Made by a program: the position numbers and the translations under genes. From Nitrospirota bacterium (lineage in GTDB: Bacteria > UBA2233): 64,000 nt of DNA. Positions 10,226 to 54,815 of this stretch are shown piece by piece. The notes under the pieces are model-generated. The model had not been told where the DNA came from, ran no database searches, and saw only the letters and a program-made list of their open reading frames with translations. The stretch covers positions 101,246-165,245 of the forward strand of contig WOZJ01000057.1 in the NCBI GenBank assembly GCA_011620345.1, read 5' to 3'. Position 1 is the stretch's first letter. Every line of letters begins with the position of its first letter.

Positions 10226-10671
10226 TCATGGAAGGAATGGCGCTTACGAGCATCCAGGAGGCTCCGATAGATGTTGAGAGTGCGCTTGGTTTTTTAGGCG
10301 ACCCTGCGGCCGGCGCTCAGGTATTTTTCTTGGGGACCGTCCGTAACAATGGCGAAGCGGCGTGCGAGGTCGAAGCGATCCTGTACGAATGCCACCTTCC
10401 TCTCGCCAAGAAGCGACTTGAGAAACTGGCTCAAGAGACGCTCGAAGCCTTTGACATCCAAAAAGTGGCCCTTATCCACCGCTACGGGATGCTCAAGGTA
10501 GGTGAGACGTCCGTTCTTGTGGCCGTCAGCGCCCCTCATAGGGTGCATGCATTCGAGGCGGCCCGCCATGGGATCGAGCGGATTAAGCATACGCTACCCG
10601 TCTGGAAAAAAGAGTTTTTTGCCAACGAAGCCTCGCGTTGGGTCAAAGGGGTTCCCTTGGACTCAATCTAA
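10222..10671 (+). CDS. moaE: Molybdopterin synthase catalytic subunit MoaE
   Basis: ~149 aa MoaE-like sequence, translationally coupled to moaD. Confidence 0.75.
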   Translation: MIMEGMALTSIQEAPIDVESALGFLGDPAAGAQVFFLGTVRNNGEAACEVEAILYECHLPLAKKRLEKLAQETLEAFDIQKVALIHRYGMLKVGETSVLVAVSAPHRVHAFEAARHGIERIKHTLPVWKKEFFANEASRWVKGVPLDSI

Positions 10672-11577
10672 AAAGGGTGTTTCCAGGTATCTAAGCACGC
10701 CCTCTTGGGTATCCAAGCTGGCCCGAATGCCGAGCGGCAGAGGGAGCATATTGGGCATATGCCCGCTAGGGATGCCCATGACAACGGGAATCTTAAGGTC
10801 CTTCAAGGCTTGCAACACGAGCGGTTCGTCCAAAGAAACTCCAAGCGGTCCGAAGACTACGGCACTGACCTTCTCGAACACGCCCGCCAGCCTTAATTGA
10901 ACGAGCATGCGGTAAAGCCTGTGGGACGGCTCCCCAATGTCTTCGAGAAAAAGCATCCAGCCTTCAAGGTTGGGCATGAATGGGGTCCCAAGGAGGGACA
11001 CAACGAGCGACAAGCACCCCCCAGTAACTCTCCCTTGGGCCTTTCCCGGGATGACAACTTTGTACTTGGGTCCCATGAGCCGTACCTCTCGGCTGAAACC
11101 TCCAGGGTTTAACGCAGCCAGTGTGCATGCAAACCCCTCTTCGGCGTGCTTGGAGAGTGTAGGGCCATGGAAGGCCACCATGCCTGCTTGGTGGACCAAG
11201 AAAAGCAAGATGGCGGTGGCGTCGCTGAACCCTATGAACGCCTTCGGGTTTTCGTGGAATAACTCAGGGTTCATTAATGGCAAGAGCTCTAGCGCGCCTC
11301 CTCCTCCCCGGGCGGCGAGGATTGCCCGGATTTCTGGGTGCGTGAACGCCAAGGTCAACGCGTCTGCCCGTCTGGAAGCCTTGGCTGCGAAAGGGAGCGC
11401 CTCCAACGTTGGTTCCTGGCAAAAGAATGCCCTGTAGCCCAGACGTTCTAGCCGATCCTTGCCCGCTTTAAGCTGGTGTTCGCCCAGGTAATGGGAGGGC
11501 GATACGATTCCAACGCTGTCACCAGGCCAAACGGGCAGGATCTTGAGGGGCGAAGTCATCGTGTCTCTAGCCGCCAT
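10663..11577 (-). CDS. LD-carboxypeptidase (peptidase S66, LdcA-like muramoyltetrapeptide carboxypeptidase)
   Basis: S66 hallmarks: N-terminal PGDSVGIVSPS, the nucleophile-region GFSDATAIL and the C-terminal His/Glu region. No signal peptide, so it is cytoplasmic. Confidence 0.8.
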   Translation of the reverse strand: MAARDTMTSPLKILPVWPGDSVGIVSPSHYLGEHQLKAGKDRLERLGYRAFFCQEPTLEALPFAAKASRRADALTLAFTHPEIRAILAARGGGGALELLPLMNPELFHENPKAFIGFSDATAILLFLVHQAGMVAFHGPTLSKHAEEGFACTLAALNPGGFSREVRLMGPKYKVVIPGKAQGRVTGGCLSLVVSLLGTPFMPNLEGWMLFLEDIGEPSHRLYRMLVQLRLAGVFEKVSAVVFGPLGVSLDEPLVLQALKDLKIPVVMGIPSGHMPNMLPLPLGIRASLDTQEGVLRYLETPFLD

Positions 11578-11592
11578 GGAACGGAAGGTTTG

Positions 11593-12123
11593 CTAGGCTT
11601 TTAAAGTGAACGGGATATCGTAGCCGGTAAAGCGTCCCAAATATTCTTTGATGTCCGTCCCTAGGGCATCTTGGAAACGGCCAGGCTCTCCAAGGAGGAA
11701 AGACCTGAGGTTTCCCACGCCCAAAAGGTGTGCGCTTGCCAAGAGTCCGGATGGGGTGATTTGAATGCCCGAGATGCCCTTCCCGACATAGGCATCGAGG
11801 CCGAGCGCTTGGATATAGCTCCAGAGTTTTGCCATAGAAATGCGTATGGCGTTCTCTTGCGCCCAGGGGCTCGAAAGGTAATCTTCCTTCGACCAGACCC
11901 CGTCCTTGCCCGTCCATTTCCCCTTCCAGTCGTTCTTGGCCGTGCCGTCTTGCAGGTAGTAGCCTGCATCAATGAGTGCGGCCTCGCCCATTTGGTACTT
12001 GCCCAAGTACCCCCAGGGGTTTTCGACATCGTACCTACCGGAGGATTCCCTTAAACCCAGTGCCGAAAGGAACGCTTCATAGTCCTTGTTTGCCTCTTCC
12101 ATATGCGTTACAATTCTGACCAA
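11593..12123 (-). CDS. Hypothetical protein, lysozyme-like/lytic-transglycosylase-like (GxYQ motif), no signal peptide
   Basis: 176 aa. ESSGRYD ... GKYQMGEAALIDAGY resembles the catalytic Glu and G(R/A)YQ motif of lambda-R-type (GH104-like) transglycosylases; a C-terminal SGLLASAHLLGVGNLRSFL segment follows. Assignment is by motif recollection only. Confidence 0.4.
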   Translation of the reverse strand: MVRIVTHMEEANKDYEAFLSALGLRESSGRYDVENPWGYLGKYQMGEAALIDAGYYLQDGTAKNDWKGKWTGKDGVWSKEDYLSSPWAQENAIRISMAKLWSYIQALGLDAYVGKGISGIQITPSGLLASAHLLGVGNLRSFLLGEPGRFQDALGTDIKEYLGRFTGYDIPFTLKA

Positions 12124-15426: not shown

Positions 15427-15513
15427 CCGGGAATCAAAACCGCCTTACAGTCGGTTGGCAAGCCATGTTCTTGCCTGGTACACTCAAAAGATGCATGAAT
15501 TATCCTTCAAAAC

Positions 15514-16005
15514 TTGGATGGTGCCATGAATGTTGCCGAGCTCCACCCCGCGTTTGTTCATTTCCCCGTCGCCCTTACCATTACCGGCCTTCTTTTCTAC
15601 CTCTTAGGATACGCTAAATGGCCCGAGTTTCAAAGGCTAGCACTTGTTCTGCTCGCGTTCGCGTTTCTTTTCTCATTTCTTAGTGTATTCACCGGAGAGA
15701 AGGCGGCTGAAGTTGCAAAAAGGATTCCTACGATCGAGCAGGCGCTGGAAAAGCACGAAGAGCTTGGCGAATGGACCCGTTGGGTGCTCGGGCTTGCTTT
15801 TATCGTTGGGATCCTTTCCCAAAGGGTATTCAAGGGGAGCCAGACGTTGGCGGCACTGTTCTTTTTGACCTACCTCTTTGCGGCGGGGTTTGTTGGATAT
15901 ACGGGATACCTTGGAGGAGAGCTTGTCCTTGAGCACGGTGCAGGGTTCAGGAATGTCCTTTCCTTGTCCCCGTTGCCCTTCGAAGAGCCACCAAAAGGGC
16001 CGTAG
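15514..16005 (+). CDS. DUF2231 family membrane protein
   Basis: LHPAFVHFPVALTITGLLFY is the DUF2231 signature; four predicted TM helices. Divergent from mutS2. Confidence 0.55.
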   Translation: MDGAMNVAELHPAFVHFPVALTITGLLFYLLGYAKWPEFQRLALVLLAFAFLFSFLSVFTGEKAAEVAKRIPTIEQALEKHEELGEWTRWVLGLAFIVGILSQRVFKGSQTLAALFFLTYLFAAGFVGYTGYLGGELVLEHGAGFRNVLSLSPLPFEEPPKGP

Positions 16006-16040: not shown

Positions 16041-17285
16041 ATGCGAGTCGTTGTCACAGGCGTGGGGTTGGTTACGCCCCTTGGGATTGGGTGGGTGGCC
16101 AACCGGCATGCCCTGCTCGAGGGCAAAAGTGGCATCGGGCCGATTACGCGGTTTTCTGCTGAAGGGTTTGAAGTCAGGATTGCGGGCGAGGTAAAGGGCT
16201 TTGACGCGGAAGCGTTTGGAATCACCCAAAAAGACGCTCGCAGGATGGATCTCTTTACGCTCTACAGCCTGGCCGCGGCCGACATGGCGCTTGCCCAAGC
16301 GGGGGTGGGGCAAAAAGACCTCGCAGGGCTTGGGCTTGAGGCTGGCGTGTACATGGGGGTAGGGATCGGAGGGCTCGGCACGATCGAGGAGAACAAGCGT
16401 ACCCTGCTCGAAAGGGGCCCAAGGAGGGTTTCGGCATTTTTGATCCCGAAGATCATTCCAAACATCGCGGGAGGGACGCTCGCGATCCGCTACAGGATTC
16501 ACGGACCGAACCTTACGTTTTCCACGGCCTGCGCCGCTTCGGCGCATTCGCTGGGGGAGGCCTTTTTGGCGGTCCGTTCGGGCAGGCTCCAGCTTGCGCT
16601 TGCCGGGGGTGCGGAAGCCGTCGTTACCCCCTTGGCGATTGCAGGGTTCGGCAACATGGAAGCGCTCTCCAAGCGCAACGACGAGCCTACAAGGGCATCG
16701 AGGCCGTTCGACAAGGCCAGGGATGGGTTTGTCCTAGCCGAGGGGGCCGCCGTGCTCGTCCTTGAAGCGCTCGATTGTGCCAAGGCAAGGGGAGCAACAA
16801 TCCTTGCCGAGGTCGCAGGGTATGGTTTGAGCGACGATGCTTACCACATCACTTCGCCGGACCCGGAAGGCAAGGGGATGGCTGCATGCATGGCCCGTGC
16901 CCTACAAGATTCAGGGTTGAGCCCGGAGTCGGTCGAGTATATCAACGCCCACGGTACCTCTACCCGGTACAACGACGCCTTCGAGACGCTTGCAATCAAA
17001 CGTGTGTTCGGGCAGCATGCCTACAAGCTTGCCGTAAGCTCGACCAAGTCCATGACCGGCCATTGCTTGGGCGGTGCGGGAGCGCTCGAGGCCGGGTTCT
17101 GTACCATGAGTATCGTCGAGGGATTTTTGCCGCCCACGATCAACTTAGATGAGCCAGACGAGGGGTTGGACCTCGATTATGTTCCTAATAAAGCAAGGCC
17201 GCTCAAGCCTCGCGTGGCAATGAGCAACTCCTTCGGGTTTGGTGGGACGAACGCTTCGCTCGTCATTAAGGCCTACGAACCTTAA
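16041..17285 (+). CDS. fabF: 3-oxoacyl-[ACP] synthase II (KAS II)
   Basis: 414 aa. Active-site Cys context FSTACAASAHSLGEA and His-His motifs (HITSPDPEG, NAHGTSTRYND, KSMTGHCLGGAGA). Confidence 0.95.
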   Translation: MRVVVTGVGLVTPLGIGWVANRHALLEGKSGIGPITRFSAEGFEVRIAGEVKGFDAEAFGITQKDARRMDLFTLYSLAAADMALAQAGVGQKDLAGLGLEAGVYMGVGIGGLGTIEENKRTLLERGPRRVSAFLIPKIIPNIAGGTLAIRYRIHGPNLTFSTACAASAHSLGEAFLAVRSGRLQLALAGGAEAVVTPLAIAGFGNMEALSKRNDEPTRASRPFDKARDGFVLAEGAAVLVLEALDCAKARGATILAEVAGYGLSDDAYHITSPDPEGKGMAACMARALQDSGLSPESVEYINAHGTSTRYNDAFETLAIKRVFGQHAYKLAVSSTKSMTGHCLGGAGALEAGFCTMSIVEGFLPPTINLDEPDEGLDLDYVPNKARPLKPRVAMSNSFGFGGTNASLVIKAYEP

Positions 17286-17300
17286 GGGAGTGATTTTGCG

Positions 17301-17618
17301 ATGTTTCTTGCCGGTTTTGGCAAATACCTTCCGAGCTTGGAGCTGTCCAACGAGGATTTCTCTTACCGGCTGCTCACATCGGACGAATGGATCCGCACAC
17401 GAACGGGCATCCTGAAGGCGGTCTCGAGCAAGATTGGGATTCCTATGGAATCTTTTTGGACCAACCTGGAACGGTATGGGAACACATCGGCCGCATCCAT
17501 ACCGATCGCCATGTCGGAGCTGCAAGAACAAGGCGGGTTGGAAGGGCAAGCAGCATGGGTGTTGAGCCTTGCGTGCGGATCGGGGTTGACGTGGGGAGCC
17601 GCCTTGCTGCGTTCCTAG
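17301..17618 (+). pseudogene. fabH: In-frame internally deleted fabH (KAS III) remnant encoding 105 aa: ~40 N-terminal plus ~65 C-terminal residues
   Basis: The product aligns to FabH residues ~1-40 (TSDEWIRTRTGI) joined directly to the C-terminal ~65 residues (KIGIPMES...YGNTSAASIP...GSGLTWGAALL). The ~215-residue middle carrying catalytic Cys and His is absent. RBS aagggag is intact. Confidence 0.6.
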
Positions 17619-17685
17619 GCTTTCGGCTTTCCGCTGAAGCATCTCGAGGGGTATAATAGATAATTGTGGATACGTAACTGTGCGG

Positions 17686-17761
17686 GGGCCCATAGCTCAA
17701 CAGGCAGAGCAGCCGGCTCATAACCGGTAGGTTCCTGGTTCGACTCCGGGTGGGCCCACCA
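17686..17761 (+). tRNA. tRNA-Met (anticodon CAT), elongator-type or tRNA-Ile(lysidine); encoded CCA
   Basis: Manual fold: acceptor GGGCCCA/TGGGCCC, D-arm GCTC..GAGC, anticodon stem GCCGG/CCGGT with loop CTCATAA, T-arm CCTGG-TTCGACT-CCGGG, discriminator A, CCA. Lacks the three G-C pairs of initiator tRNA. TATAAT sits 30 bp upstream. Confidence 0.8.
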
Positions 17762-18654: not shown

Positions 18655-19020
18655 GAAGTTAGGGAGGGGGTCGCGAGTTCCACGGAACTCGAGGAAAGTC
18701 CGGACTCCAAAAGGCAGGATGGCCGCTAACCGCGGCTCGGGGTGACCTGAAGGAAAGTGCCACAGAAAAGAAACCGCCCTCGGTGCAAAAGCCTTGGGTA
18801 AGGGTGAAACGGCGAGGTAAGAGCTCACCGGTCCTTCAGCGATGAGGGGCGCATGGCAAACCCCATCCGGAGCAAGACCAAATAGGGAAGGTATGGGATC
18901 GCCTGTTCCGGCCGGTAATTCCGGCGCCTTCCGGGTTAGGTCGCACGCACGTTGAGGCAAAGAGGAATGACCCTCACCCGCCGTTTGGCGGGGACAGAAT
19001 CCGGCTTATCCCTAACTTTA
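18655..19020 (+). ncRNA. rnpB: RNase P RNA (bacterial type A), rnpB
   Basis: Universally conserved elements read on the + strand: GAGGAAAGTCCGGACTCC (P4 5' strand), ACAGAAA, GGGTGAAA, AGGTAAGAGCTCACC and ACAGAATCCGGCTTA (P4 3' strand). P1 pairs GTTAGGGAGG at the 5' end with TCCCTAAC at the 3' end. Confidence 0.8.
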
Positions 19021-19041
19021 AGGCCTTTCGATGTTTCTACG

Positions 19042-19977
19042 ATGAGCTTGCCACTTTTGCCTTCGCCTTTTGCCGCCTACCACATCCCCGTCCTTAAGGA
19101 CGCCGTTGTTTCGTTGGCCTACGGGGCAAAAAACCTTTCCGTCTTGGTGGATGCAACCGTAGGAGACGGGGGGCACCTGGAAGCCCTTTTGGGTCTAGTT
19201 CCGGAAAGTTGCCGCGTACTCGCTCTTGATCAAGACGCAAGCGCGATCGAACGGGCAAAGGCCAGGCTTTCCGAGCATCCCCGCTTTGAGTCCATCTTAT
19301 GGGTCAAGGCGCGGTTTTCCGCTATCCCTGGGCTGCTGAATGAGCTAGGGATGCCCCAAGCGGGGTTTGTCCTGCTCGATCTGGGGGTTTCCAGCCGTCA
19401 GCTGGAGGATCCAGGGCGAGGGTTTAGTTTTCGTCACCCAGGACCGCTGGACATGCGGATGGATCCGTTTATTCATACGCCTGCCAAAGAGCTGGTCAAC
19501 ACGCTTTCCGAGAAAGAGTTGGCGGATATTCTTTGGGGCTTAGGCCAGGAGCCTAGGTCCAGGAGGATCGCCAGGGCTATCATGGAGGCCAGGAGAGTCC
19601 AGCCAATAGAATCCACCTCGGCCCTTGCCCAAATCATCGAGCGTTCCGTCGGGAGAAAGGGCCGTTCATTCAAGATCCATCCGGCGACTCGCTCGTTCAT
19701 GGCGCTTCGGATTGCCGTCAACGACGAGCTTGGAGAGCTGCAAAGAGGGCTCGAGGGGGCCGTTTCCAAGCTCGGACCGTGTGGTAGAATCGTTGTAATC
19801 AGCTACCATTCTCTGGAGGACGGGCTTGTGAAGCGCTTTTTCAAAGCTCGGGACGACGGAAGCATCCTTACCAAAAAACCCGTTCGGCCGGACTTGGAAG
19901 AGGTTCGTGCCAACCCTCGCTCAAGAAGCGCCAAGCTCCGATGTTTCGAAAAAGAAGGCCAGAGTTCGTGCATTTAG
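19042..19977 (+). CDS. rsmH: 16S rRNA (cytosine1402-N4)-methyltransferase RsmH (MraW)
   Basis: HIPVLKDAVV...VDATVGDGGH SAM-MTase signature. The six-frame ORF begins inside rnpB at 18952; the first ATG after the rnpB 3' end, at 19042, is taken as the start. Confidence 0.85.
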   Translation: MSLPLLPSPFAAYHIPVLKDAVVSLAYGAKNLSVLVDATVGDGGHLEALLGLVPESCRVLALDQDASAIERAKARLSEHPRFESILWVKARFSAIPGLLNELGMPQAGFVLLDLGVSSRQLEDPGRGFSFRHPGPLDMRMDPFIHTPAKELVNTLSEKELADILWGLGQEPRSRRIARAIMEARRVQPIESTSALAQIIERSVGRKGRSFKIHPATRSFMALRIAVNDELGELQRGLEGAVSKLGPCGRIVVISYHSLEDGLVKRFFKARDDGSILTKKPVRPDLEEVRANPRSRSAKLRCFEKEGQSSCI

Positions 19978-42318: not shown

Positions 42319-42375
42319 AAAAGGACATTTTTCACCCTTCCGGGGAATTTCATGCAACATGTGCAGGAGAAGAGC

Positions 42376-45300
42376 ATGGCACAGGCCGATAGCCCTCAAT
42401 GGGCGATGATGGACGGCAACGAGGCATGCGCCTTCGTTGCTTATAAAATCAACGAAGTGATCGCAATATACCCGATTACGCCGTCATCCCCCATGGCGGA
42501 GCTTGCCGACGAATGGTCGGCAAAGGGCAAGAAGAACGTGTTCGGGAGCGTTCCTTCCGTGGTTGAGATGCAAAGCGAGGCGGGCGCGGCAGCCGCCGTC
42601 CACGGAGCACTCCAGGCAGGGGCCCTCGCCACTACGTTTACGTCATCCCAGGGCCTTTTGTTAATGATCCCTTCCATGTTCAAGATAGCGGGCGAGCTTA
42701 CGCCTGTCGTGTTCCATATAGCGGCACGGACGGTCGCGACGCATGCGCTTTCCATCTTTGGCGACCACAGCGACGTAATGGCCGTAAGAAGCACGGGGTT
42801 TGCAATGCTGTCTTCCTCCTCTGTTCAGGAGGCCATGGACTTGGCGTTGATCTCCCAGGCGGCATCGCTCGAATCGAGGATTCCCTTTTTGCACTTCTTC
42901 GACGGGTTCCGCACTTCTCACGAGGTCAACAAGGTGCAGGTGCTGACGGATGAGCAAATTCTTGCCATGCTCGACTCCGAGCGAATCTTTGCACACAGGA
43001 AACGCGCGCTCTCTCCCGACAGGCCCTTTATCCGGGGTACGTCGCAAAACCCCGATACGTTTTTCCAGGAGCGTGAGGCCATCAACCCCCTTTATGCAAA
43101 ATGCCCTGGGGTTGTCGAAGACTGCATGGAGCGGTTCTTCCGCCTGACAGGCAGGAGGTACCGGCTATTTGAATATACTGGAGCGCCCGATGCCGATCGC
43201 GTGATTGTGGTCATGGGTTCCGGGGCAGAGACTGTCGAAGAAACCGTCTCGGCGCTCAACCGGCAGGGTGAGCGGGTTGGCGTGATTCGAGCGCGCCTGT
43301 TCCGTCCGTTCTCAAGGTCCGCGTTTCTTTCTTCCCTTCCAAAAACTGTTTGCAGAGTTGCGGTGCTGGACCGCACAAAAGAGCCTGGCGCCGAGGGCGA
43401 GCCCTTGTACATGGACGTGCAAACGGCCATCGCGAACGCGATGCAAGGTACAAACCCACCGTTCGAGCGCGCCCCGGAACTTGTCGGCGGACGCTATGGG
43501 TTATCCTCCAAAGAATTTACGCCATCCATGGTGAAGGCCGTCTTTGATGAGCTGAAGACGCAAGCCCCTAGGTGTTCGTTTAGCGTCGGGATCGAAGACG
43601 ACGTGTCAGGGCTTAGCCTTCCGTTCGACCCAGAGTTTCGACTCAAGCAAGAAGGGCAATACGGCGCCATGTTCTACGGCCTTGGCTCGGACGGTACCGT
43701 AGGAGCGAGCAAAAACACAATTAAGATCATCGGCGAGGATACGCCCAACTTTGCCCAGGGCTACTTTGTGTACGATTCCAAGAAGGCTGGGTCGGTGACC
43801 GTATCCCACCTCAGGTTCGGCCCAAAGCCGATAAGGGCACCCTACTTGATTGACAGGGCCGATTTTATCAGCGTGAGCCAGCCTGTCTTCCTCGATCGTT
43901 TCGACATGCTCGATTACGCCAAAGAGGGGGGGGTCTTCTTGCTCAACAGCCCCTTTGGCCCTGAAGAGGCGTGGGAGCAACTGCCCTTCGAATACCAAGA
44001 GCAGATCCTTAAGAGGCGTCTGAAGTTTTACGTCATCAACGCCTATGAGATAGCCAAAGAAGTGGGCATGGGTCGAAGGATCAACACGATTATGCAGGCC
44101 TGCTTCTTCGCGCTTTCTGGAATCCTTCCTAAAGAGGATGCTATTGCCGCGATGAAGGGTGCGATTGCAAAAACGTACGGGCGTAAAGGGGAGATGGTTG
44201 TTCAGAAAAACTACGCCATGATCGACATGACGCTCGAGCATCTTTTCGAAGTGGACACCACCTCAAGGCGCATGAGCTCCTCGGCACGCTCTATGCCACC
44301 CGTCGTGTCCCCTAAAGCGCCAGATTTCGTCACGGGGGTCGTTGCTCCGATGGTAGCAGGTCAGGGAGATTCGTTGCCCGTGAGCGCCTTTCCTTTGGAT
44401 GGAACCTTCCCGACCGGTACGGCCAAGTGGGAAAAGCGAAACCTTGCGCTTAGCATTCCGGCCTGGGAGATGGATTTGTGCATCCAGTGCGGAAAATGCG
44501 CCTTGGTTTGTCCCCACGCAGCGATTCGGATCAAGGCCTACGAAGAACGTTTTGCCGAAAACGCCCCGCGGACGTTCAAGAAAATGCCATACAAGGGCAG
44601 AGAATTTTCGGGCTTCTCTTACACCATCCAAGTTGCGGCGGAAGATTGCACGGGCTGCACGCTGTGCGTTGAGATTTGCCCCGCTCGTGATAAACAAAAT
44701 CCGGACAGGAAGGCGCTGAACATGGTGCCGCAGATGCCCATCCGGGATGCAGAGCGCGACAACTTCGATTTCTTCCTAGAACTGCCGGAGGTCGACCGAC
44801 GGCTGGTGAAAGTGGACACCGTCAAAGGCTCCCAGTTCCTTGAGCCCCTTTTCGAATTTTCCGGTGCCTGCGAAGGGTGCGGAGAAACACCCTACCTCAA
44901 GCTCTTAACCCAGCTGTTCGGTGACAGGCTGCTTATCGGGAATGCAACGGGGTGCTCCTCGATATACGGAGGAAACCTCCCTACAACGCCCTATACGATG
45001 AACAAAGAGGGCAGGGGTCCAGCCTGGTCTAACTCGTTGTTCGAGGATGCAGCCGAGTTTGCGCTCGGATTTCGCTTGACGATCGACAACCAGGTTGCGT
45101 TTGCTGCGGACCTTTTAAAGCAGCTTGCCGCAGACGTTGGCCAGGAGCTAGCAGAGGATATCCTAAACGCTGACCAAGCGAGCGAGCCAGGGGTATACGA
45201 ACAACGGCAACGGCTTGAGGCTCTAAAGGAGCGCCTAAAGGCTATGGGGCCGAGCCAAAAGGTCGCCCAACTCTTGTCGTTGGCCGATTTGCTTGTCAGG

Positions 45301-45996
45301 AAGTCGGTCTGGGGTGTCGGCGGCGATGGATGGGCCTACGACATCGGTTACGGCGGCGTAGACCACGTGCTTGCCTCAGGGCGGAACATTAACCTGCTCG
45401 TAATGGATACCGGGGTGTACTCCAACACAGGCGGGCAGATGTCCAAGGCCACGCCTTTGGGGGCGGTAGCCAGGTTTGCCGCGTCGGGAAAAGCCCAACC
45501 ACGAAAAGACTTGGCGCTCATGGCGATCACCTACGGGAGCGTTTACGTGGCGCAGATTGCCATGGGGGCAAACGATACCCAAACTGTCAAGGCTTTTATC
45601 GAGGCGGAGCGCTACGACGGCCCTTCTATCATTATTGCTTACTCCCACTGTATTGCGCACAACATTGACATGGCCAAGGGGTTCGAACACCAAAAGCTTG
45701 CCGAACAGGTTGGGTTTTGGCCACTTTTTAGGTATAACCCAAAGCTTGCCGAGGAAGGGAAAAATCCTTTGATCCTCGATTCGAAACCCCCGAAGCTCTC
45801 TTTCGCCGAGTTCGCGAAGCAAGAAGGGCGGTTTCGGATGCTTGAACGAATCGACCCGGACAGGGCGAAGCTGCTGCTCCAAAGGGCGGAGGCGGAGATC
45901 CAGCGGAGCTTTGCTTTTTATCAACACTTGGCAAGCTTTAACCCTGCTCAGAATGGTAACGGCAAGCAGGAAACAGTCAAAGCAACTTTAAGCTAG
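42376..45996 (+). CDS. nifJ: Pyruvate:ferredoxin (flavodoxin) oxidoreductase, single-polypeptide PFOR/NifJ type
   Basis: Domains I-VII are present. N-terminal MDGNEA..AIYPITPSS, two 4Fe-4S ferredoxin motifs (CIQCGKCALVCPHAAI, CTGCTLCVEICP) and the TPP-binding GDGW. Start taken at MAQADS after RBS caggagaag; the six-frame ORF begins at 42352. Confidence 0.95.
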   Translation: MAQADSPQWAMMDGNEACAFVAYKINEVIAIYPITPSSPMAELADEWSAKGKKNVFGSVPSVVEMQSEAGAAAAVHGALQAGALATTFTSSQGLLLMIPSMFKIAGELTPVVFHIAARTVATHALSIFGDHSDVMAVRSTGFAMLSSSSVQEAMDLALISQAASLESRIPFLHFFDGFRTSHEVNKVQVLTDEQILAMLDSERIFAHRKRALSPDRPFIRGTSQNPDTFFQEREAINPLYAKCPGVVEDCMERFFRLTGRRYRLFEYTGAPDADRVIVVMGSGAETVEETVSALNRQGERVGVIRARLFRPFSRSAFLSSLPKTVCRVAVLDRTKEPGAEGEPLYMDVQTAIANAMQGTNPPFERAPELVGGRYGLSSKEFTPSMVKAVFDELKTQAPRCSFSVGIEDDVSGLSLPFDPEFRLKQEGQYGAMFYGLGSDGTVGASKNTIKIIGEDTPNFAQGYFVYDSKKAGSVTVSHLRFGPKPIRAPYLIDRADFISVSQPVFLDRFDMLDYAKEGGVFLLNSPFGPEEAWEQLPFEYQEQILKRRLKFYVINAYEIAKEVGMGRRINTIMQACFFALSGILPKEDAIAAMKGAIAKTYGRKGEMVVQKNYAMIDMTLEHLFEVDTTSRRMSSSARSMPPVVSPKAPDFVTGVVAPMVAGQGDSLPVSAFPLDGTFPTGTAKWEKRNLALSIPAWEMDLCIQCGKCALVCPHAAIRIKAYEERFAENAPRTFKKMPYKGREFSGFSYTIQVAAEDCTGCTLCVEICPARDKQNPDRKALNMVPQMPIRDAERDNFDFFLELPEVDRRLVKVDTVKGSQFLEPLFEFSGACEGCGETPYLKLLTQLFGDRLLIGNATGCSSIYGGNLPTTPYTMNKEGRGPAWSNSLFEDAAEFALGFRLTIDNQVAFAADLLKQLAADVGQELAEDILNADQASEPGVYEQRQRLEALKERLKAMGPSQKVAQLLSLADLLVRKSVWGVGGDGWAYDIGYGGVDHVLASGRNINLLVMDTGVYSNTGGQMSKATPLGAVARFAASGKAQPRKDLALMAITYGSVYVAQIAMGANDTQTVKAFIEAERYDGPSIIIAYSHCIAHNIDMAKGFEHQKLAEQVGFWPLFRYNPKLAEEGKNPLILDSKPPKLSFAEFAKQEGRFRMLERIDPDRAKLLLQRAEAEIQRSFAFYQHLASFNPAQNGNGKQETVKATLS

Positions 45997-49462: not shown

Positions 49463-50176
49463 CTAACAAACCTCCATTTGCATGCGCACTTTTTTAAGGA
49501 GCGTTTTTGCACGGGCAAGGGCGAATCGCTCTACCAAAAGGACGGCAAAGAAGAATAGGAACGTTACGAGGCTGATCCATAGCGTTTCGGCCATAGGCTG
49601 ATCTAGGCCTGCACCCTTCCGGCCAGACAGAACGCTAGGATGGATGCTTCGCCACCATTTGACGGACATCCTTACGATGGGGACGTCAAGGAAGGCTATA
49701 ATCCCGAGCACGGCAGCAGCCCTCTTCCCCTGCTCACTTTCGAGCGAGAGGTGTCGAAGAAGCAGGTATCCGACGTACAGAACCCAGAGGATCAGTGTCG
49801 TAGTGAGGCGATTGTCCCACGTCCAGTAGGCGCCCCATGCAGGCTTTGCCCAGATCGGCCCCGTTATCAGCACCAGAGAGCAGCATGCGACGCCCACTTC
49901 GGCCAGGCTGGAAGCAAGGTCGTCAAACACGTCCTTACGAACGGCAAGAAAGGCGATGCTCGCGACGAAAACGCCGAAGAATGCTGTGAATGCGCCGATT
50001 GCGCACGGCAGGTGTATGTAGAAGATTTTCTGCACGACCCCTTGATAAGAGTCGATAGGCGTGAACCAAAAGATGCGGATAAAGCCTCCAAGCACGCCCA
50101 GGCATGCCGCAGTTACGGCGAGCGTGTTCAACCGCGATGCGTAGTACCGTTCGAGCATCTTGTCGAGCATTGGCAT
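49463..50176 (-). CDS. ccmC: Heme exporter protein CcmC
   Basis: Six TM helices and the WWD domain WGAYWTWDNRLT with flanking His residues. Confidence 0.85.
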   Translation of the reverse strand: MPMLDKMLERYYASRLNTLAVTAACLGVLGGFIRIFWFTPIDSYQGVVQKIFYIHLPCAIGAFTAFFGVFVASIAFLAVRKDVFDDLASSLAEVGVACCSLVLITGPIWAKPAWGAYWTWDNRLTTTLILWVLYVGYLLLRHLSLESEQGKRAAAVLGIIAFLDVPIVRMSVKWWRSIHPSVLSGRKGAGLDQPMAETLWISLVTFLFFFAVLLVERFALARAKTLLKKVRMQMEVC

Positions 50177-50178
50177 GG

Positions 50179-50856
50179 CTATTCTTCCAAAACATGTTCA
50201 ATAAGCAACAGACCCATCCCAAAGTAAAGCAAGTCAAACCCAACAAGGAGACTTCCCCAGCCGGATCCCATCTCGAACCGGCCGTTGAGCCCTTGGCGCA
50301 TGAGCGAGGAGGAGGCGAGCAGCGGAGGAATCATCAGCGGATAGAGCAACACTGCCAAGAGTACATGCCTTGCCCTGACATTCCAGGACAAGAGCGTCAT
50401 GAGGGTGCCGAGCGCGCTAAACCCAAAAAGGAATAGCATCTCGACCCATACTACCCAAAGAAGCTGAAGCCATGTAAGCGAAAGCCCCAAAAACGCGATA
50501 AAAACGGGTAGGGATACGATCCCGACCATAAACAGGAACGCAAGCGTAGAAAAGGTCTTTCCTAGGTAGAGGGAGCTAAGCCCTACCGGGGACACGACGA
50601 TTCCGTACAAGCCATCGTCCCTACGCTCCCGCTCGATCGCCTTTTCGAGCGCCAGGATGCCGCTTAACGCCAAAAGCGTCAGGTAGAGGGCGGGGAAGAG
50701 CTGGCGGGATTGATCGGGCAATGGCGAAAGCGAGAACACGAACAAGAGCAACAATACGAGGCAGAAAAGCCCCAAAGGGATAAAAATCTCCTTAGAGCGG
50801 GCCTCAATCATAAAATCCCTTTGGACGAGCGCCCAGGTTGCCGTGAGGGTACTCAT
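50179..50856 (-). CDS. ccmB: Heme exporter permease CcmB
   Basis: Six-TM ABC-2-type permease placed between ccmA and ccmC. CcmB-like FxxDxxxGxxE region (ALEKAIERERRDDGLYG). Confidence 0.75.
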   Translation of the reverse strand: MSTLTATWALVQRDFMIEARSKEIFIPLGLFCLVLLLLFVFSLSPLPDQSRQLFPALYLTLLALSGILALEKAIERERRDDGLYGIVVSPVGLSSLYLGKTFSTLAFLFMVGIVSLPVFIAFLGLSLTWLQLLWVVWVEMLFLFGFSALGTLMTLLSWNVRARHVLLAVLLYPLMIPPLLASSSLMRQGLNGRFEMGSGWGSLLVGFDLLYFGMGLLLIEHVLEE

Positions 50857-51557
50857 GCGAGCGCTTCCATGACAACGTTCATTAAGGCGGGGTTGTCTGC
50901 CTCCGACTCGGCCACGATCCGTCCGCCCTTGATCAGCAAGACGGTGGTGGCAAGCTCCTTTGCAAACGCAAGGTCATGGCTCGTGAACAGGACGGTGGTA
51001 GGCTGGACAAAAAGGTCACGAGCGAAACCAAGGGCTTCCTCGTCGAGCCCGTTGAATGGCTCGTCGAGGATAAGCAGCCTTGGCTCGTGTAGACGAACCC
51101 TCACAAGGGCTAGCCGCTGGCGTTGGCCAGTGGAGAGCGTGAATACAGGGCTACGGCGGGCATGCTCAAGGCCTGCCCAGGAAAAAAGCCCTTCGATACG
51201 CTCGTCCAGCGATTGCTTGTCCATGCCGTACAGCTTTCCAAAGAAGTGCAAATTTTCTTCGAGGGTTAACTCTTCGGCAAAAAACCCCCGGCTTAAAAGC
51301 AGCCCCAAGTGCCGCAAAGAAGCCCTTGGGGCCTGATCGATCGGATGTCCGAAGAGCCGGACATGCCCGCTGTTTGGCCTTTGGATGCCGCAAAGAAGCT
51401 TAAGCAAGGTGGTTTTCCCTGCCCCGTTGGGCCCGTAGAGTAACACCCGCTCATTTTGTCCGAGTCTCAGGTGAACACTTCGAAGAACCCAGCGTTCAGA
51501 TAGCACTTTCGAAACACCAACAGCTTCTAGCAGCGGTGGGGAGGTATCTTGAGCCAT
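50853..51557 (-). CDS. ccmA: Cytochrome c biogenesis ABC ATPase CcmA
   Basis: Walker A GPNGAGKTTLLK, signature LSTGQRQR, Walker B LLILDEP. Overlaps the ccmB start (ATGA-type coupling). Confidence 0.85.
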   Translation of the reverse strand: MAQDTSPPLLEAVGVSKVLSERWVLRSVHLRLGQNERVLLYGPNGAGKTTLLKLLCGIQRPNSGHVRLFGHPIDQAPRASLRHLGLLLSRGFFAEELTLEENLHFFGKLYGMDKQSLDERIEGLFSWAGLEHARRSPVFTLSTGQRQRLALVRVRLHEPRLLILDEPFNGLDEEALGFARDLFVQPTTVLFTSHDLAFAKELATTVLLIKGGRIVAESEADNPALMNVVMEALA

Positions 51558-51581
51558 AGCTCGTAGGCTTTTGCTTAAGAC

Positions 51582-52292
51582 TTAAGAAGAAAGAGTCATG
51601 CCGCGGCGCCTGGATCGCGCCCTAAAGGCAAACAGCAAAAGAAGCCCTATGCCGATCCCGCCCGCGATGATCAAGCCTGGGTGGATCGATTTTCCCCCTT
51701 GCGCGTGGAATACCACGACGAGAGACGGAGCGCCGGGAAGGCCGGCATGGCCGACGTAGTGCTCAAACGTTTGGGGAGCCTTGTCGGCGGGCAGCACCTC
51801 GTCTTCGAGTTTGCTTGCCCCTTCGACGGTGACTGCAAACACCCCTCCCTTTGGAACAAAAATCTCAACGGGATGAGGCGAAGCAACCCTTCCTGGTTCG
51901 AAGCGAAAAGGCTTTGAACCCATCGTAACCGTGTAAGCGAGGCTGAACTGATTCTGGCCTAGTCTTACCCCCCCAGTGTAGACGACGTTCTCCTTCTTAA
52001 GCTTTGCGCCAGCATCAAGGCCATGCAGCAACTTTACTCCGTTTGCGCCGGAAGGAAGAGGAAACTTTAGCGCATTGCTCCCTTCGAGCTTGTCCAAGGC
52101 CAGCTTGGATGCAAGCACGTATACCTCCATAACATCGATAGATTGGTCGTCTTTAGGAAGAAGGACAAGGCTCCTCCGAGCAGAAGCGACGAACGACGGG
52201 AAAGCGACCGCCGGTTCCTCGGCCATGAGCGTTCCAGAGAAGATCCACGCGGTAGCCAAAAATCCGCAAGCAAGGCTAAATACAGACTTCAT
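51582..52292 (-). CDS. Hypothetical exported protein with C-terminal TM anchor, encoded inside the ccm operon
   Basis: 236 aa. N-terminal signal-like hydrophobic segment, ~190 aa soluble domain without Cys motifs, then a C-terminal TM helix (LIIAGGIGIGLLLLFAF) and an RSRRR tail. I recognise no homology. Confidence 0.5.
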   Translation of the reverse strand: MKSVFSLACGFLATAWIFSGTLMAEEPAVAFPSFVASARRSLVLLPKDDQSIDVMEVYVLASKLALDKLEGSNALKFPLPSGANGVKLLHGLDAGAKLKKENVVYTGGVRLGQNQFSLAYTVTMGSKPFRFEPGRVASPHPVEIFVPKGGVFAVTVEGASKLEDEVLPADKAPQTFEHYVGHAGLPGAPSLVVVFHAQGGKSIHPGLIIAGGIGIGLLLLFAFRARSRRRGMTLSS

Positions 52293-52417
52293 GGGTTTTT
52301 TGTATCCTTTCGTTTGGGTTTGAGAGCGTGCCCAGAATCCTGCCCCTCCAAGAAGGGCAGGATCAAGTAGGACAAAACCACCCCAACCAGGATCATTTCT
52401 ACAAGTGCAATCGTCAT
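52289..52417 (-). CDS. Small single-TM peptide (42 aa), possible CcmD-like component
   Basis: MTIALVEMILVGVVLSYLILPFLEGQDSGHALKPKRKDTKNP: one TM helix plus a basic tail. Start abuts the ccmF stop. Assignment is by position and topology only. Confidence 0.3.
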   Translation of the reverse strand: MTIALVEMILVGVVLSYLILPFLEGQDSGHALKPKRKDTKNP

Positions 52418-52422
52418 CGTCT

Positions 52423-54384
52423 CTAGCTCGCTATATCTACAAAGTTTTTTTGTCCGGCGAATTCTGGAGATTTGTCTGCCAAAGGAATGAGCGTAAGGAC
52501 CCCTCCAAGACACATGAGCGTTCCTCCAAGCCAAAGGAATCCAATCAGCGGGTTGTCGTGAACCTCAAACACACCTTGTTGATGCTGGAAATCATAGCCC
52601 GCAAGGACGGCATAAACGTCTCCGCTGGGCCTTGACCGGATGGCTACTCGCGTTACAGGCTGCTCTTGATTTTTTAGGAATGTCTTGCTAGGCACGAGCG
52701 AGGAGACGAAGGTTCCGTTTTTGTACAGGTGAAGAAGAGAGGAGATTGTAATCCAAGGACCATCTTGCTTAAAAGCCAGCCCATCGAACACCAGCTGATT
52801 GTCCCCGACCGAGGTCGATTCCCCCTTCTTCAGGCTTACTTCTTGCTTGGTGTGGCCATACTGCCCAAACACACCAAAAAGAGAGATCACCAAGCCAGTG
52901 TGGACAAGGATCGCTCCAACACGCCGTATTCTTAGGTCTCCAAGAAAGGCGCTAACCAGCGCGTGTTTCAGGATGCCTACAGCCGCGAACCCCAAAAAGG
53001 CCATCCCTACCAACTCATTGAGATGTCGAAGCCCAAATATCCCCCATGCGAGCCCACCAACGACAAGGCCCCCGATGATGGGCCCAAGCAGCGAAGAAAG
53101 GGTACGTTTGAGTGTCTCGGGAGATGGTGGCAGGAAAAGGCCGGCCCCTAGCGTGAACAGCAATGCCCAGGCGAGAGGAGCGTTGATCTTGTTGAAGAAA
53201 GCCGCCCCTAAACTGAGCTTTTGCCCGATGAATGCTTCCGAAACTAGCGGGAATATCGTTCCCCAAAACGTCGTGAACGTCATGGCGACGAGAATCACGC
53301 AGGTGAAAACCAGCGCGGAAGGACGCGAGAGCAAAGGAAGGCTCTCTAGGTTTTTCTCGCCCTTGAGGAGCCCGCGCCGCAAGAAGATCAGGCCGAATCC
53401 GTAGACCAAAAGCGCAAACAGAAACGCCGTGAAGCTGATTGTAAAGGTCTTATTTTGGACGAAGGCGTGAACCGAGCTGATGATACCGCTCCGCGTGAGG
53501 AAGGTTCCAAAGATGGTCAGCCCAAAAGAAAAAACGACGAGGGCAAGGTTCCATTTCTTCAGCAGCCCCGTGCGGGCCTGCAGCAGCAACGTATGCAATA
53601 GAGCTGAAAGCGTAAGCCAAGGCAGCAATCCCGCGTTCTCGACAGGGTCCCATGCCCAGAAGCCGCCCCACCCTAACGTTTCGTATGCCCAGTTGCCCCC
53701 CAAAAGGTTTCCGATTCCCAAAAGCCCCCATGACCCAAGGCAGAACGTTCGAATCGCCCGAAAGGCGCTCGGGTTGTCGAATTTGGCGAGCAGCATCCCC
53801 ACAACGAGCGCGTAGGGAACCGTCGCGCTGATGTAGCCAAGATACAAGGTAGGCGGGTGGATGGCCATGATCGGATGCTGGAGTTGTGCATTGAGGCCTA
53901 GTCCTTCGGCAGGCGTGAAAGGGAGTAGCGTAAATGGGTTCGTAACGAAAACGACGAGTGCCAAAAAGAAAACGAGCACGCCCAGGATGGCGTGGTATGA
54001 GTACAGGCTAACGTTTAAGGGTAGCCCGAACGTCTTTCTGAAGGTCAAGAGCGAAACGACCCCCATCAAAGCGACCATCCAGGCCCAAAGAAGCAGCGAG
54101 CCGGCCTGGCCTGCCCAGAATGCGGTCATCGTGTATAAAAAGGGAAGATCTTTCGAGACGTGGCTTGCTACGTACTCAACCCTTAGGTCTTTGGTTGCCA
54201 AAAGTTCTATCAGACATAGAGAGGCAACGGAAAGGAGCCCAAACGACGCAACAATCGTTCTTGTCGCACTCTTGGCCAAACGGGCCTTTTCTTTTGGATT
54301 CTTGGCGGCCGTAAAGGCTGAAACAGACCCGTAAAGAGCGACAAGAAGGGCAAGAAGAAGGGCGAAACTTCCAAGGCTTGCCAT
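52423..54384 (-). CDS. ccmF: Cytochrome c-type biogenesis protein CcmF
   Basis: ~650 aa polytopic protein with the WWD domain GFWAWDPVENAGLLPWL and conserved His residues. Start taken at MASLGSFALL so it abuts ccmE; the six-frame ORF extends to 54447. Confidence 0.9.
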   Translation of the reverse strand: MASLGSFALLLALLVALYGSVSAFTAAKNPKEKARLAKSATRTIVASFGLLSVASLCLIELLATKDLRVEYVASHVSKDLPFLYTMTAFWAGQAGSLLLWAWMVALMGVVSLLTFRKTFGLPLNVSLYSYHAILGVLVFFLALVVFVTNPFTLLPFTPAEGLGLNAQLQHPIMAIHPPTLYLGYISATVPYALVVGMLLAKFDNPSAFRAIRTFCLGSWGLLGIGNLLGGNWAYETLGWGGFWAWDPVENAGLLPWLTLSALLHTLLLQARTGLLKKWNLALVVFSFGLTIFGTFLTRSGIISSVHAFVQNKTFTISFTAFLFALLVYGFGLIFLRRGLLKGEKNLESLPLLSRPSALVFTCVILVAMTFTTFWGTIFPLVSEAFIGQKLSLGAAFFNKINAPLAWALLFTLGAGLFLPPSPETLKRTLSSLLGPIIGGLVVGGLAWGIFGLRHLNELVGMAFLGFAAVGILKHALVSAFLGDLRIRRVGAILVHTGLVISLFGVFGQYGHTKQEVSLKKGESTSVGDNQLVFDGLAFKQDGPWITISSLLHLYKNGTFVSSLVPSKTFLKNQEQPVTRVAIRSRPSGDVYAVLAGYDFQHQQGVFEVHDNPLIGFLWLGGTLMCLGGVLTLIPLADKSPEFAGQKNFVDIAS

Positions 54385-54386
54385 GC

Positions 54387-54815
54387 CTACCTCGTTTTGT
54401 TTTGCGAAGGGTTGGTCTCCGACTTGGCGCTGTAGCGCGAAGGACAACTCGTCAGGAGTGTTTTGGCCTCAAATGTTCCGTTCGCCAGGGTGCCCTGGAC
54501 GATGACCTGCCCCCCCTCGCGCAGCATGTCGGGTACAGCCCCCCGGTAAGCCACCGGGATCTCTCCTGTTTCGTCCGTTAGCACGAAAAAGGCCCCAAGG
54601 CCGCTCGGTTGTTTGGCGATCGAGCCTTGTTTCACCTTTCCGATCACCCTGACCTCGGGTTTGGACTCTAAGAATTTTGGAATATCTCGGACAGGAACAG
54701 AATAAGTGCTGGCCTCCCTGACAGCCCCATACACAAGGTAGGAGAAGCCCACCAAGAGGATTCCGAGCGCCACGACAAGCTTGGATTTTGGTACACGCAT
54801 AAAAAGAACCTCCAA
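54387..54815 (-). CDS. ccmE: Heme chaperone CcmE, Cys variant (CxxxY in place of HxxxY)
   Basis: N-terminal TM anchor and OB-fold (VRVIGKVKQGSI ... GGQVIVQGTL). Where E. coli has LAKHDENY this protein reads LTSCPSRY, so the heme-binding His is replaced by Cys. Confidence 0.85.
   Translation of the reverse strand: MEVLFMRVPKSKLVVALGILLVGFSYLVYGAVREASTYSVPVRDIPKFLESKPEVRVIGKVKQGSIAKQPSGLGAFFVLTDETGEIPVAYRGAVPDMLREGGQVIVQGTLANGTFEAKTLLTSCPSRYSAKSETNPSQNKTR

Follow-up and report, generated by a model that had tools for sequence, protein, structure and literature searches.

Fatty-acid synthesis is started by KAS III (β-ketoacyl-ACP synthase III), the product of fabH, which condenses acetyl-CoA with malonyl-ACP. 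FabH is usually seen as obligatory and single-copy, the enzyme that initiates type II fatty-acid synthesis, and also as an antibiotic target. Its active-site residues are, in Escherichia coli, Cys112, His244 and Asn274. The family is covered by the models TIGR00747 and NF006829, by the two Pfam domains PF08545 and PF08541 and by solved structures such as those from E. coli (1hn9) and Aquifex (2ebd). Loss of fabH has been described in the laboratory. The E. coli ΔfabH strain is viable via MadA, a malonyl-ACP decarboxylase that supplies FabB/FabF with acetyl-ACP (PMC8666670), and its rescue has been attributed to MadA/YiiD (PMC8666670, PMC13555641). The FabB enzyme of P. putida is itself able to initiate (PMC10869286), and the E. 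faecalis ΔfabH mutant is leaky, some de novo synthesis being retained (PMC13372179).

The locus considered here lies in a 64,000-nt stretch of Nitrospirota DNA, the whole of which was analysed and is called the window below. A previous sequence-only reading had described fabH as cut to an in-frame 105-codon open reading frame (ORF) directly downstream of fabF, with the FabH start and ribosome-binding site kept. Both points hold true: the ORF begins with ATG at 17301 and ends with a TAG stop, and the AAGGGAG element at 17284–17290 is kept, with minor variation, across deletion and intact alleles. The main features of the locus are as follows.

15514..16005, + strand: DUF2231 membrane-protein gene, directly upstream of fabF (Pfam PF09990, E 1.2e-16)
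16041..17285, + strand: intact fabF, encoding β-ketoacyl-ACP synthase II, 414 aa (Pfam ketoacyl-synt and Ketoacyl-synt_C)
17284..17290, + strand: putative Shine–Dalgarno-like AAGGGAG, 10 nt 5' of the remnant ATG and overlapping the fabF stop codon
17301..17618, + strand: fabH remnant ORF, 105 codons and TAG, 15 nt past the fabF stop
17301..17411, + strand: retained 5' part, fabH codons 1–37 (MFLAGFGKYLPS...TSDEWIRTRTGI), collinear with the intact genes of contigs L087 and L092 and with that of L002
17407..17412, + strand: deletion junction, with the single remaining GCATCC copy, placed by slicing of intact genes
17412..17615, + strand: retained 3' part, fabH codons 256–323 (LKAVSSKIGIP...YGNTSAAS...GSGLTWGAALLRS), from Pfam, structure alignment and intact-allele slicing
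17652..17657, + strand: TATAAT box, read from the sequence, about 29 nt 5' of tRNA-Met
17686..17761, + strand: tRNA-Met (CAT), found by ARAGORN and Rfam (RF00005, 66.7 bits), standing after fabH in all related loci

The remnant consists of FabH residues 1–37 joined in frame to the final 68, with 218 residues missing, close to the approximately 40, 65 and 215 residues estimated beforehand. Its N-terminal block (residues 3/4–39/40) aligns to residues 6–41 of Aquifex FabH 2ebd (i-E 2e-3) and to residues 8–45 of 4wzu (i-E 2.5e-5). Residues 35–104 align to FabH 240–308 (i-E 7e-14), and whole-sequence E-values against 38 solved FabH-type chains go down to 1.8e-21. The match is far beyond chance, since the retained parts are 91–97% nucleotide-identical to the corresponding parts of intact orthologues at the same locus. 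The structural elements common to FabH and the remnant are the TSDEWIxxRTGI loop, the YGNTSAAS segment with the triad Asn (remnant residues 59–66) and the Gly-rich GxGLTWG loop (GSGLTWG, residues 93–99).

Part of the catalytic triad has been lost. In the numbering of the intact allele, both Cys110 (AACSGF motif) and His249 (PHQAN motif) fall within the deleted codons 38–255, as the sequence-only reading had proposed for the catalytic Cys and His; the junction lies 6 codons past His249, and Asn279 is kept in the retained 3' part together with the Gly-rich loop. The Pfam search of the remnant gave ACP_syn_III_C (PF08541) only, as a partial match (profile positions 22–89 of 90, E 7.7e-19); the ACP_syn_III domain (PF08545) was not found in it, which leaves the remnant outside the two-domain architecture. 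Against curated cut-offs of 249 bits for NF006829 and 292.1 bits for TIGR00747, it scores 95.9 and 84.8 bits respectively, about one third of these values. Judged from its sequence, the remnant cannot act as a condensing enzyme, since it has neither the Cys nor the His and the whole N-terminal thiolase half is missing. It is thus derived from a bona fide fabH, but functionally it is not a member of the family.

The nature of the ancestral gene could be established from related loci. A homology search with the remnant yielded a fragment of 92 aa whose C-terminal part is 96% identical and which extends upstream into ...VVPHQATLRI. The contig of origin (L002) carries, between the end of fabF and tRNA-Met, a 323-codon fabH interrupted solely by an in-frame TAG at codon 227. 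When the N-terminal 226 residues of this gene were used as query, uninterrupted 323-aa proteins were found at 93%, 69% and 68% identity, along with a 328-aa protein at 65%, the next matches being at 47% or below. The contigs of these intact full-length proteins show full synteny with the window. All have in common the order dxs, RDD, thiS, moaE, ldcA-like, FAA hydrolase, mutS2, DUF2231, fabF, fabH and tRNA-Met, then Zn-ribbon, rnpB, rsmH, murE, murF, mraY, murD, mraZ, murG and murC, and this synteny holds in L003, L087, L088 and L092–L101. The sequence-only reading had proposed to compare the locus in sister genomes. This comparison places an intact 323-codon fabH at the exact syntenic position in L087, L092–L101 and L088–L091. 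The state of fabH and the nucleotide identity to the window are distributed as follows.

L003 and L004: fabH deletion, 98.7–98.8%
L102 and L105: fabH deletion, 97.3–97.4%
L087: fabH intact, 97.8% over 20 kb
L092–L101 (ten samples, sister population): fabH intact, 93.5%
L088–L091 (more distant relative): fabH intact, about 77% over the approximately 1.1 kb that aligns, with fabF at 72%

Given its flanks and its collinearity, the remnant is an orthologue, or allele, of the fabH gene at the fabF–fabH–tRNA-Met locus, and the ancestral state indicated by these alignments is a normal fabH. Deletion and intact alleles coexist inside a group of at least 97% identity, in which the intact allele is represented by one contig (L087), so that its frequency rests on this contig. 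The intact protein P0134 passes the cut-offs of both NF006829 (343.6 bits for 249) and TIGR00747 (323.5 bits for 292.1), and it presents Cys110, His249 and Asn279 in canonical motifs, the sequence hallmarks of a bona fide KAS III. Over the portion deleted in the window, a dN/dS of 0.19 between L002 and L087 shows that intact fabH is functional in the clade, under purifying selection.

These intact orthologues also bear on whether the remnant might instead belong to a distinct, conserved family of stand-alone FabH C-terminal-domain small proteins with their own function, which the sequence-only reading had named as the finding that would overturn a deletion. The name given by NCBI, '3-oxoacyl-ACP synthase III C-terminal domain-containing protein', points in this direction, as do other short FabH-like proteins with both termini (P0003/P0132, 105 aa; P0008, 133 aa; P0004, 154 aa; P0007, 162 aa). 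However, the syntenic orthologue is a normal 323-aa FabH in the same species, in the 93.5% sister population and in the distant relatives. The other short forms likewise keep the FabH N- and C-terminus and are annotated alike, but they have different junctions, come from different lineages, show 31–46% identity and, in L108, stand in an unrelated context; they are independent events and form no joint family. Their apparent abundance reflects a bias of the search tool, since the first homology search gave short proteins only and missed the 93%-identical full-length P0134. Such a family would be expected to extend its architecture beyond one species under purifying selection, whereas the remnant exists solely inside this species. 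A separate small-protein family is thus hardly credible here.

The other short forms deserve a brief description of their own. P0003/P0132 is found in 'Desulf...' MAGs under four NCBI accessions, and P0008 is related to it but differs in the extent of the deletion. In L108 (1540–1857), P0003 is an orphan flanked by genes for a RecD2-like helicase and for an ADP-forming acyl-CoA synthetase. For P0004 and P0007, the junction coincides with a region of similarity between the two pseudo-symmetric halves of the thiolase fold (…DIDLIIPHQAN).

Deletions between short direct repeats, by slipped-strand or illegitimate recombination, generate bacterial pseudogenes. The boundaries of the present deletion conform to this ordinary mechanism. 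The loss amounts to 654 bp, or 218 codons (38–255), which accounts for the size of the remnant (323 − 218 = 105). In L087, L092 and L002, the hexanucleotide GCATCC occurs twice in the gene, at nt 107–112 and 761–766, 654 bp apart. Up to GCATCC the window matches the left flank, past it the right flank, and the blastn alignment of L087 falls into two segments whose overlap spans window positions 17407–17421. The junction was set by explicit coordinate slicing; the MAFFT whole-locus alignment misplaced the 5' part of L002. The distant relative L088 is devoid of the GCATCC repeat. The undeleted allele thus has one repeat at each end and the deleted allele a single copy at the junction, as in a microhomology deletion, and the earlier view of a precise in-frame internal deletion gains support from both the intact alleles and these terminal repeats. 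Other microhomology deletions share the short repeats flanking the loss, the retention of one copy and the sequence of a single event followed by decay of the remnant. The difference is that this one is a multiple of three, leaving a translatable ORF which annotation pipelines call as a protein. This in-frame state needs no special explanation, since one deletion in three is in frame.

The following scenario can be proposed. Slippage or recombination between the two GCATCC direct repeats inside fabH would have removed 654 bp, and this would have arisen once, in the ancestor of part of one uncultured Nitrospirota species. Because the deletion is in frame, the fabH start, ribosome-binding site and stop would still enclose an open 105-codon ORF. 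The product of this event would be a loss-of-function allele, a young pseudogene now segregating beside intact fabH, with a sequence that appears to be starting to drift at positions invariant in working FabH. A single origin is argued by derived changes past the junction that are common to all deletion alleles, VSSKI being found just after it where intact alleles have VASKT. The flanks of some carriers look mosaic, downstream in L001 and in fabF in L103, from which it follows that the deletion allele has probably moved between backgrounds by recombination. A single microhomology-mediated deletion, which turned fabH into a non-catalytic pseudogene segregating in a natural population, is on this evidence a highly probable account of the locus.

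The sequence-only reading had kept open an assembly collapse, in which the middle of an intact fabH would have been collapsed or skipped by assembly or binning while the true gene was full-length. The metagenomic origin of the window assembly, with identical proteins on an NCBI contig of 235,924 bp (P0129 is identical to the 105-aa protein of the window), could raise such a suspicion. Against this, the homology search gave a cluster of 12 near-identical proteins of 93–109 aa (104–105 aa for 10 of the 12), all with the same RTGI/LKAV junction, which is present in at least 12 protein variants and 5 DNA haplotypes. The junction is found in contigs of at least 11 other samples or assemblies, produced by different pipelines: the NCBI MAG GCA_034190365.1 (104-kb contig), three Logan run assemblies, two ENA assemblies (MEGAHIT k119/k141 contigs) and five JGI metagenomes, all independent recoveries. 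Two distinct deletion haplotypes are present in one sample (ERZ27315071). Between them, the deletion alleles show 21 segregating sites and an additional 3-bp deletion, and since they carry mutations of their own, such as G93R and this in-frame deletion, they are evolving lineages. The sole repeat at the junction is 6 bp long, far under any assembly k-mer, and cannot cause a collapse; intact alleles, moreover, assemble without difficulty in other samples. An artefact can on these grounds be practically dismissed. Looked up exactly, the 105-aa protein and FabF of the window matched no indexed contig. A metagenome contig collection gave no match to the reconstructed full-length FabH or to a 21-nt conserved DNA word, this collection evidently being without these samples, and a literature search on the assembly and run accessions returned nothing.

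With the deletion taken as real, the variation within the remnant may be considered. G93R, in the GxGLTWG loop, is present in some deletion alleles, I67T (AASIP) occurs among them, and an out-of-phase 3-bp deletion converts SLAC to SPC in L105–L107. All three changes fall at positions invariant in working FabH. Over the five haplotypes, the remnant has 11 nonsynonymous and 8–10 synonymous segregating sites (omega about 0.4), compared with 8 nonsynonymous to 13 synonymous in the same codons of intact alleles, for a neutral site ratio of about 3.1 to 1. The omega of the remnant is roughly twice that of the intact alleles, a difference which is not significant (Fisher p = 0.34), and the departure from neutrality is marginal, with few mutations (binomial p = 0.02–0.07). 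No stop or frameshift was seen in the recovered remnant alleles, which were sampled via a protein database that favours open ORFs, and the sole indel has a length divisible by three. Some of the variants also occur in intact alleles, from which recombination may have brought them in. The open ORFs and the in-frame indel could reflect residual constraint, or else imported variation, young age and open-ORF ascertainment.

Residual constraint would be expected if the deletion product had a non-catalytic role that keeps the ORF open. Candidate roles are binding to ACP or to the FabH/FabF partner surface, a dominant-negative or regulatory micro-protein, and translation coupling with fabF. In agreement with such a role, every allele keeps the start codon, the ribosome-binding site and the frame intact, omega lies near 0.4 and not at 1, the single indel is in frame, and the allele occurs widely, on several backgrounds of which some are recombinant. 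These signs are offset by substitutions that strike the most conserved FabH motifs (G93R, I67T, SLAC to SPC) and by the absence from the fragment of most of both thiolase-fold cores. The mutations are too few to tell an omega of 0.4 from 1 or from the value of intact alleles, at the p values given above, and the database favours open ORFs. Nor is there a downstream operon gene for coupling to serve, since tRNA-Met is provided with a TATAAT of its own. The AlphaFold2 model computed from the single remnant sequence (pLDDT 48.9, an all-helical guess) is uninformative and does not count as negative evidence. A non-catalytic role therefore looks improbable, and we infer that the remnant is a young pseudogene under relaxed constraint, without a function of its own.

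The adjacent fabF gene is intact. It ends with TAA at 17283–17285, and its product passes the TIGR03150 equivalog cut-off (578.3 bits for 493.75). Its dN/dS is 0.03–0.33 among members of the species; against the sister lineage it is 0.10. Comparison of FabF between deletion strains (window, L003, L102, L103, L105) and intact strains (L087, L092) revealed nothing striking by way of compensation: a single difference, K125R, is fixed between them, and this conservative substitution is most simply explained by linkage. The L103 fabF is itself a mosaic of the two populations, which suggests frequent recombination at the locus. Upstream, the order DUF2231–fabF is the same in all related loci, and the DUF2231 gene is probably the first of the same transcription unit, preceded by a putative sigma-70-like site at 15455–15484 (consensus match only). 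On the other side, the string GGGGTATAATA at the TATAAT box is conserved in every aligned locus, and this box is the probable promoter of tRNA-Met itself.

Further downstream lie a CT398-like zinc-ribbon gene and the RNase P RNA, at the head of a cell-division/cell-wall cluster with an unusual order. Between 18655 and 32696 the window reads rnpB, rsmH, murE, murF, mraY, murD, mraZ, murG, murC, murB ... ftsA, ftsZ, with mraZ between murD and murG, not before rsmH, and no ftsL, ftsI or ftsW between rsmH and murE. This order is conserved in sister strains and in the sister species (also L003, L087 and L089). The longest rsmH ORF (18952–19977, with TTG as start codon) shares about 70 nt with the 3' end of the RNase P RNA gene (18655–19023); gene callers start rsmH further downstream in sister contigs (306–336 aa), and the true start is probably internal. 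A difference in gene calling was also noticed for the LdcA-like peptidase S66, called together with the neighbouring 169-aa hypothetical protein as one 479-aa product in L087 (3365–4804), whereas in the window (10663–12123) and in L003 they are two genes.

The source organism is, as far as sequence comparisons tell, an isolated, uncultured lineage. The sister MAG GCA_034190365.1 is labelled 'Nitrospirota bacterium' by NCBI, and the G+C content of the window is 54.7%. FtsZ identity is 97–100% inside the species; two related groups follow at 91% and 82%, and beyond these it is 64% or below. Among the matches listed against species-representative genomes, FabF identity is at most 56%, with many phyla represented. 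Also encoded in the window are a single-chain pyruvate:ferredoxin oxidoreductase of 1214 aa (42352–45996) and a CcmABC/CcmF-type cytochrome c maturation set (49463–54447), which would fit the lifestyle of an anaerobic or microaerophilic, autotroph-like Nitrospirota.

How the carriers initiate fatty-acid synthesis is the main functional question raised by the deletion. No other condensing enzyme, ACP, FabD/G/Z/I or Mad-like gene was found within the 64-kb window, and no alternative initiating enzyme within the window and 10 kb on each side of fabH in the sister contigs. The carriers would start synthesis by another route, and the candidates are a second KAS III encoded elsewhere, a malonyl-ACP decarboxylase feeding acetyl-ACP to FabF, or the decarboxylating side activity of FabF itself. 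The sequence-only reading had named the supply of KAS III by another gene; initiation without FabH, by enzymes of the FabF/FabB type or a malonyl-ACP decarboxylase, is a further option, known from other bacteria (PMC8666670, PMC10869286). By analogy with the known cases, they would use either a second KAS III or a FabH bypass. The situation resembles that of the laboratory fabH knock-outs in that KAS III is lost, the cell survives and an elongating condensing enzyme is available for acetyl-ACP, here the intact adjacent fabF. It differs from them in being a natural loss that segregates in the wild, in an uncultured population, viability being deduced from the spread of the allele.

A possible second lesion is seen in the sister population (about 93.5%), where the L002 gene (42–1013; JGI 3300035311, Ga0393749_08259) owes its TAG at codon 227 to a GAG to TAG change and also carries T78P and, within the motif HQAN, N252T. 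Here fabH may have been inactivated a second time, independently, or a single 1.4-kb contig may contain a sequencing error. The wide distribution of the deletion allele, with the L002 changes as a hint only, suggests that fabH is dispensable in the clade. It is conceivable, though rather doubtful, that the deletion strains are without any other KAS III and rely on a FabH-independent initiation not yet described for a deep-branching, Nitrospirota-like lineage. A candidate route would then be decarboxylation of malonyl-ACP by the adjacent FabF, or by an unrecognised decarboxylase; retention of the 105-aa product as a non-catalytic ACP- or FabF-binding micro-protein is a smaller possibility.

In-frame remnants of this kind are named as proteins by annotation pipelines ('ACP synthase III C-terminal domain-containing protein'), and as a consequence MAG-based reconstructions may score fabH as present though it is non-functional, or as absent when one strain has lost it. 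The observation is mildly interesting in itself, a supposedly core gene being polymorphic for loss in the wild. A loss-of-function fabH allele has spread in a wild population beside intact alleles, and this spread shows that, at least in this uncultured lineage, the cell can do without FabH or has a backup for it, a natural loss that echoes the recent laboratory findings on FabH bypass. If the deletion strains do have no other KAS III, the intact/deleted polymorphism would provide a ready-made genetic contrast for finding the route used and for measuring its effect on membrane lipids.
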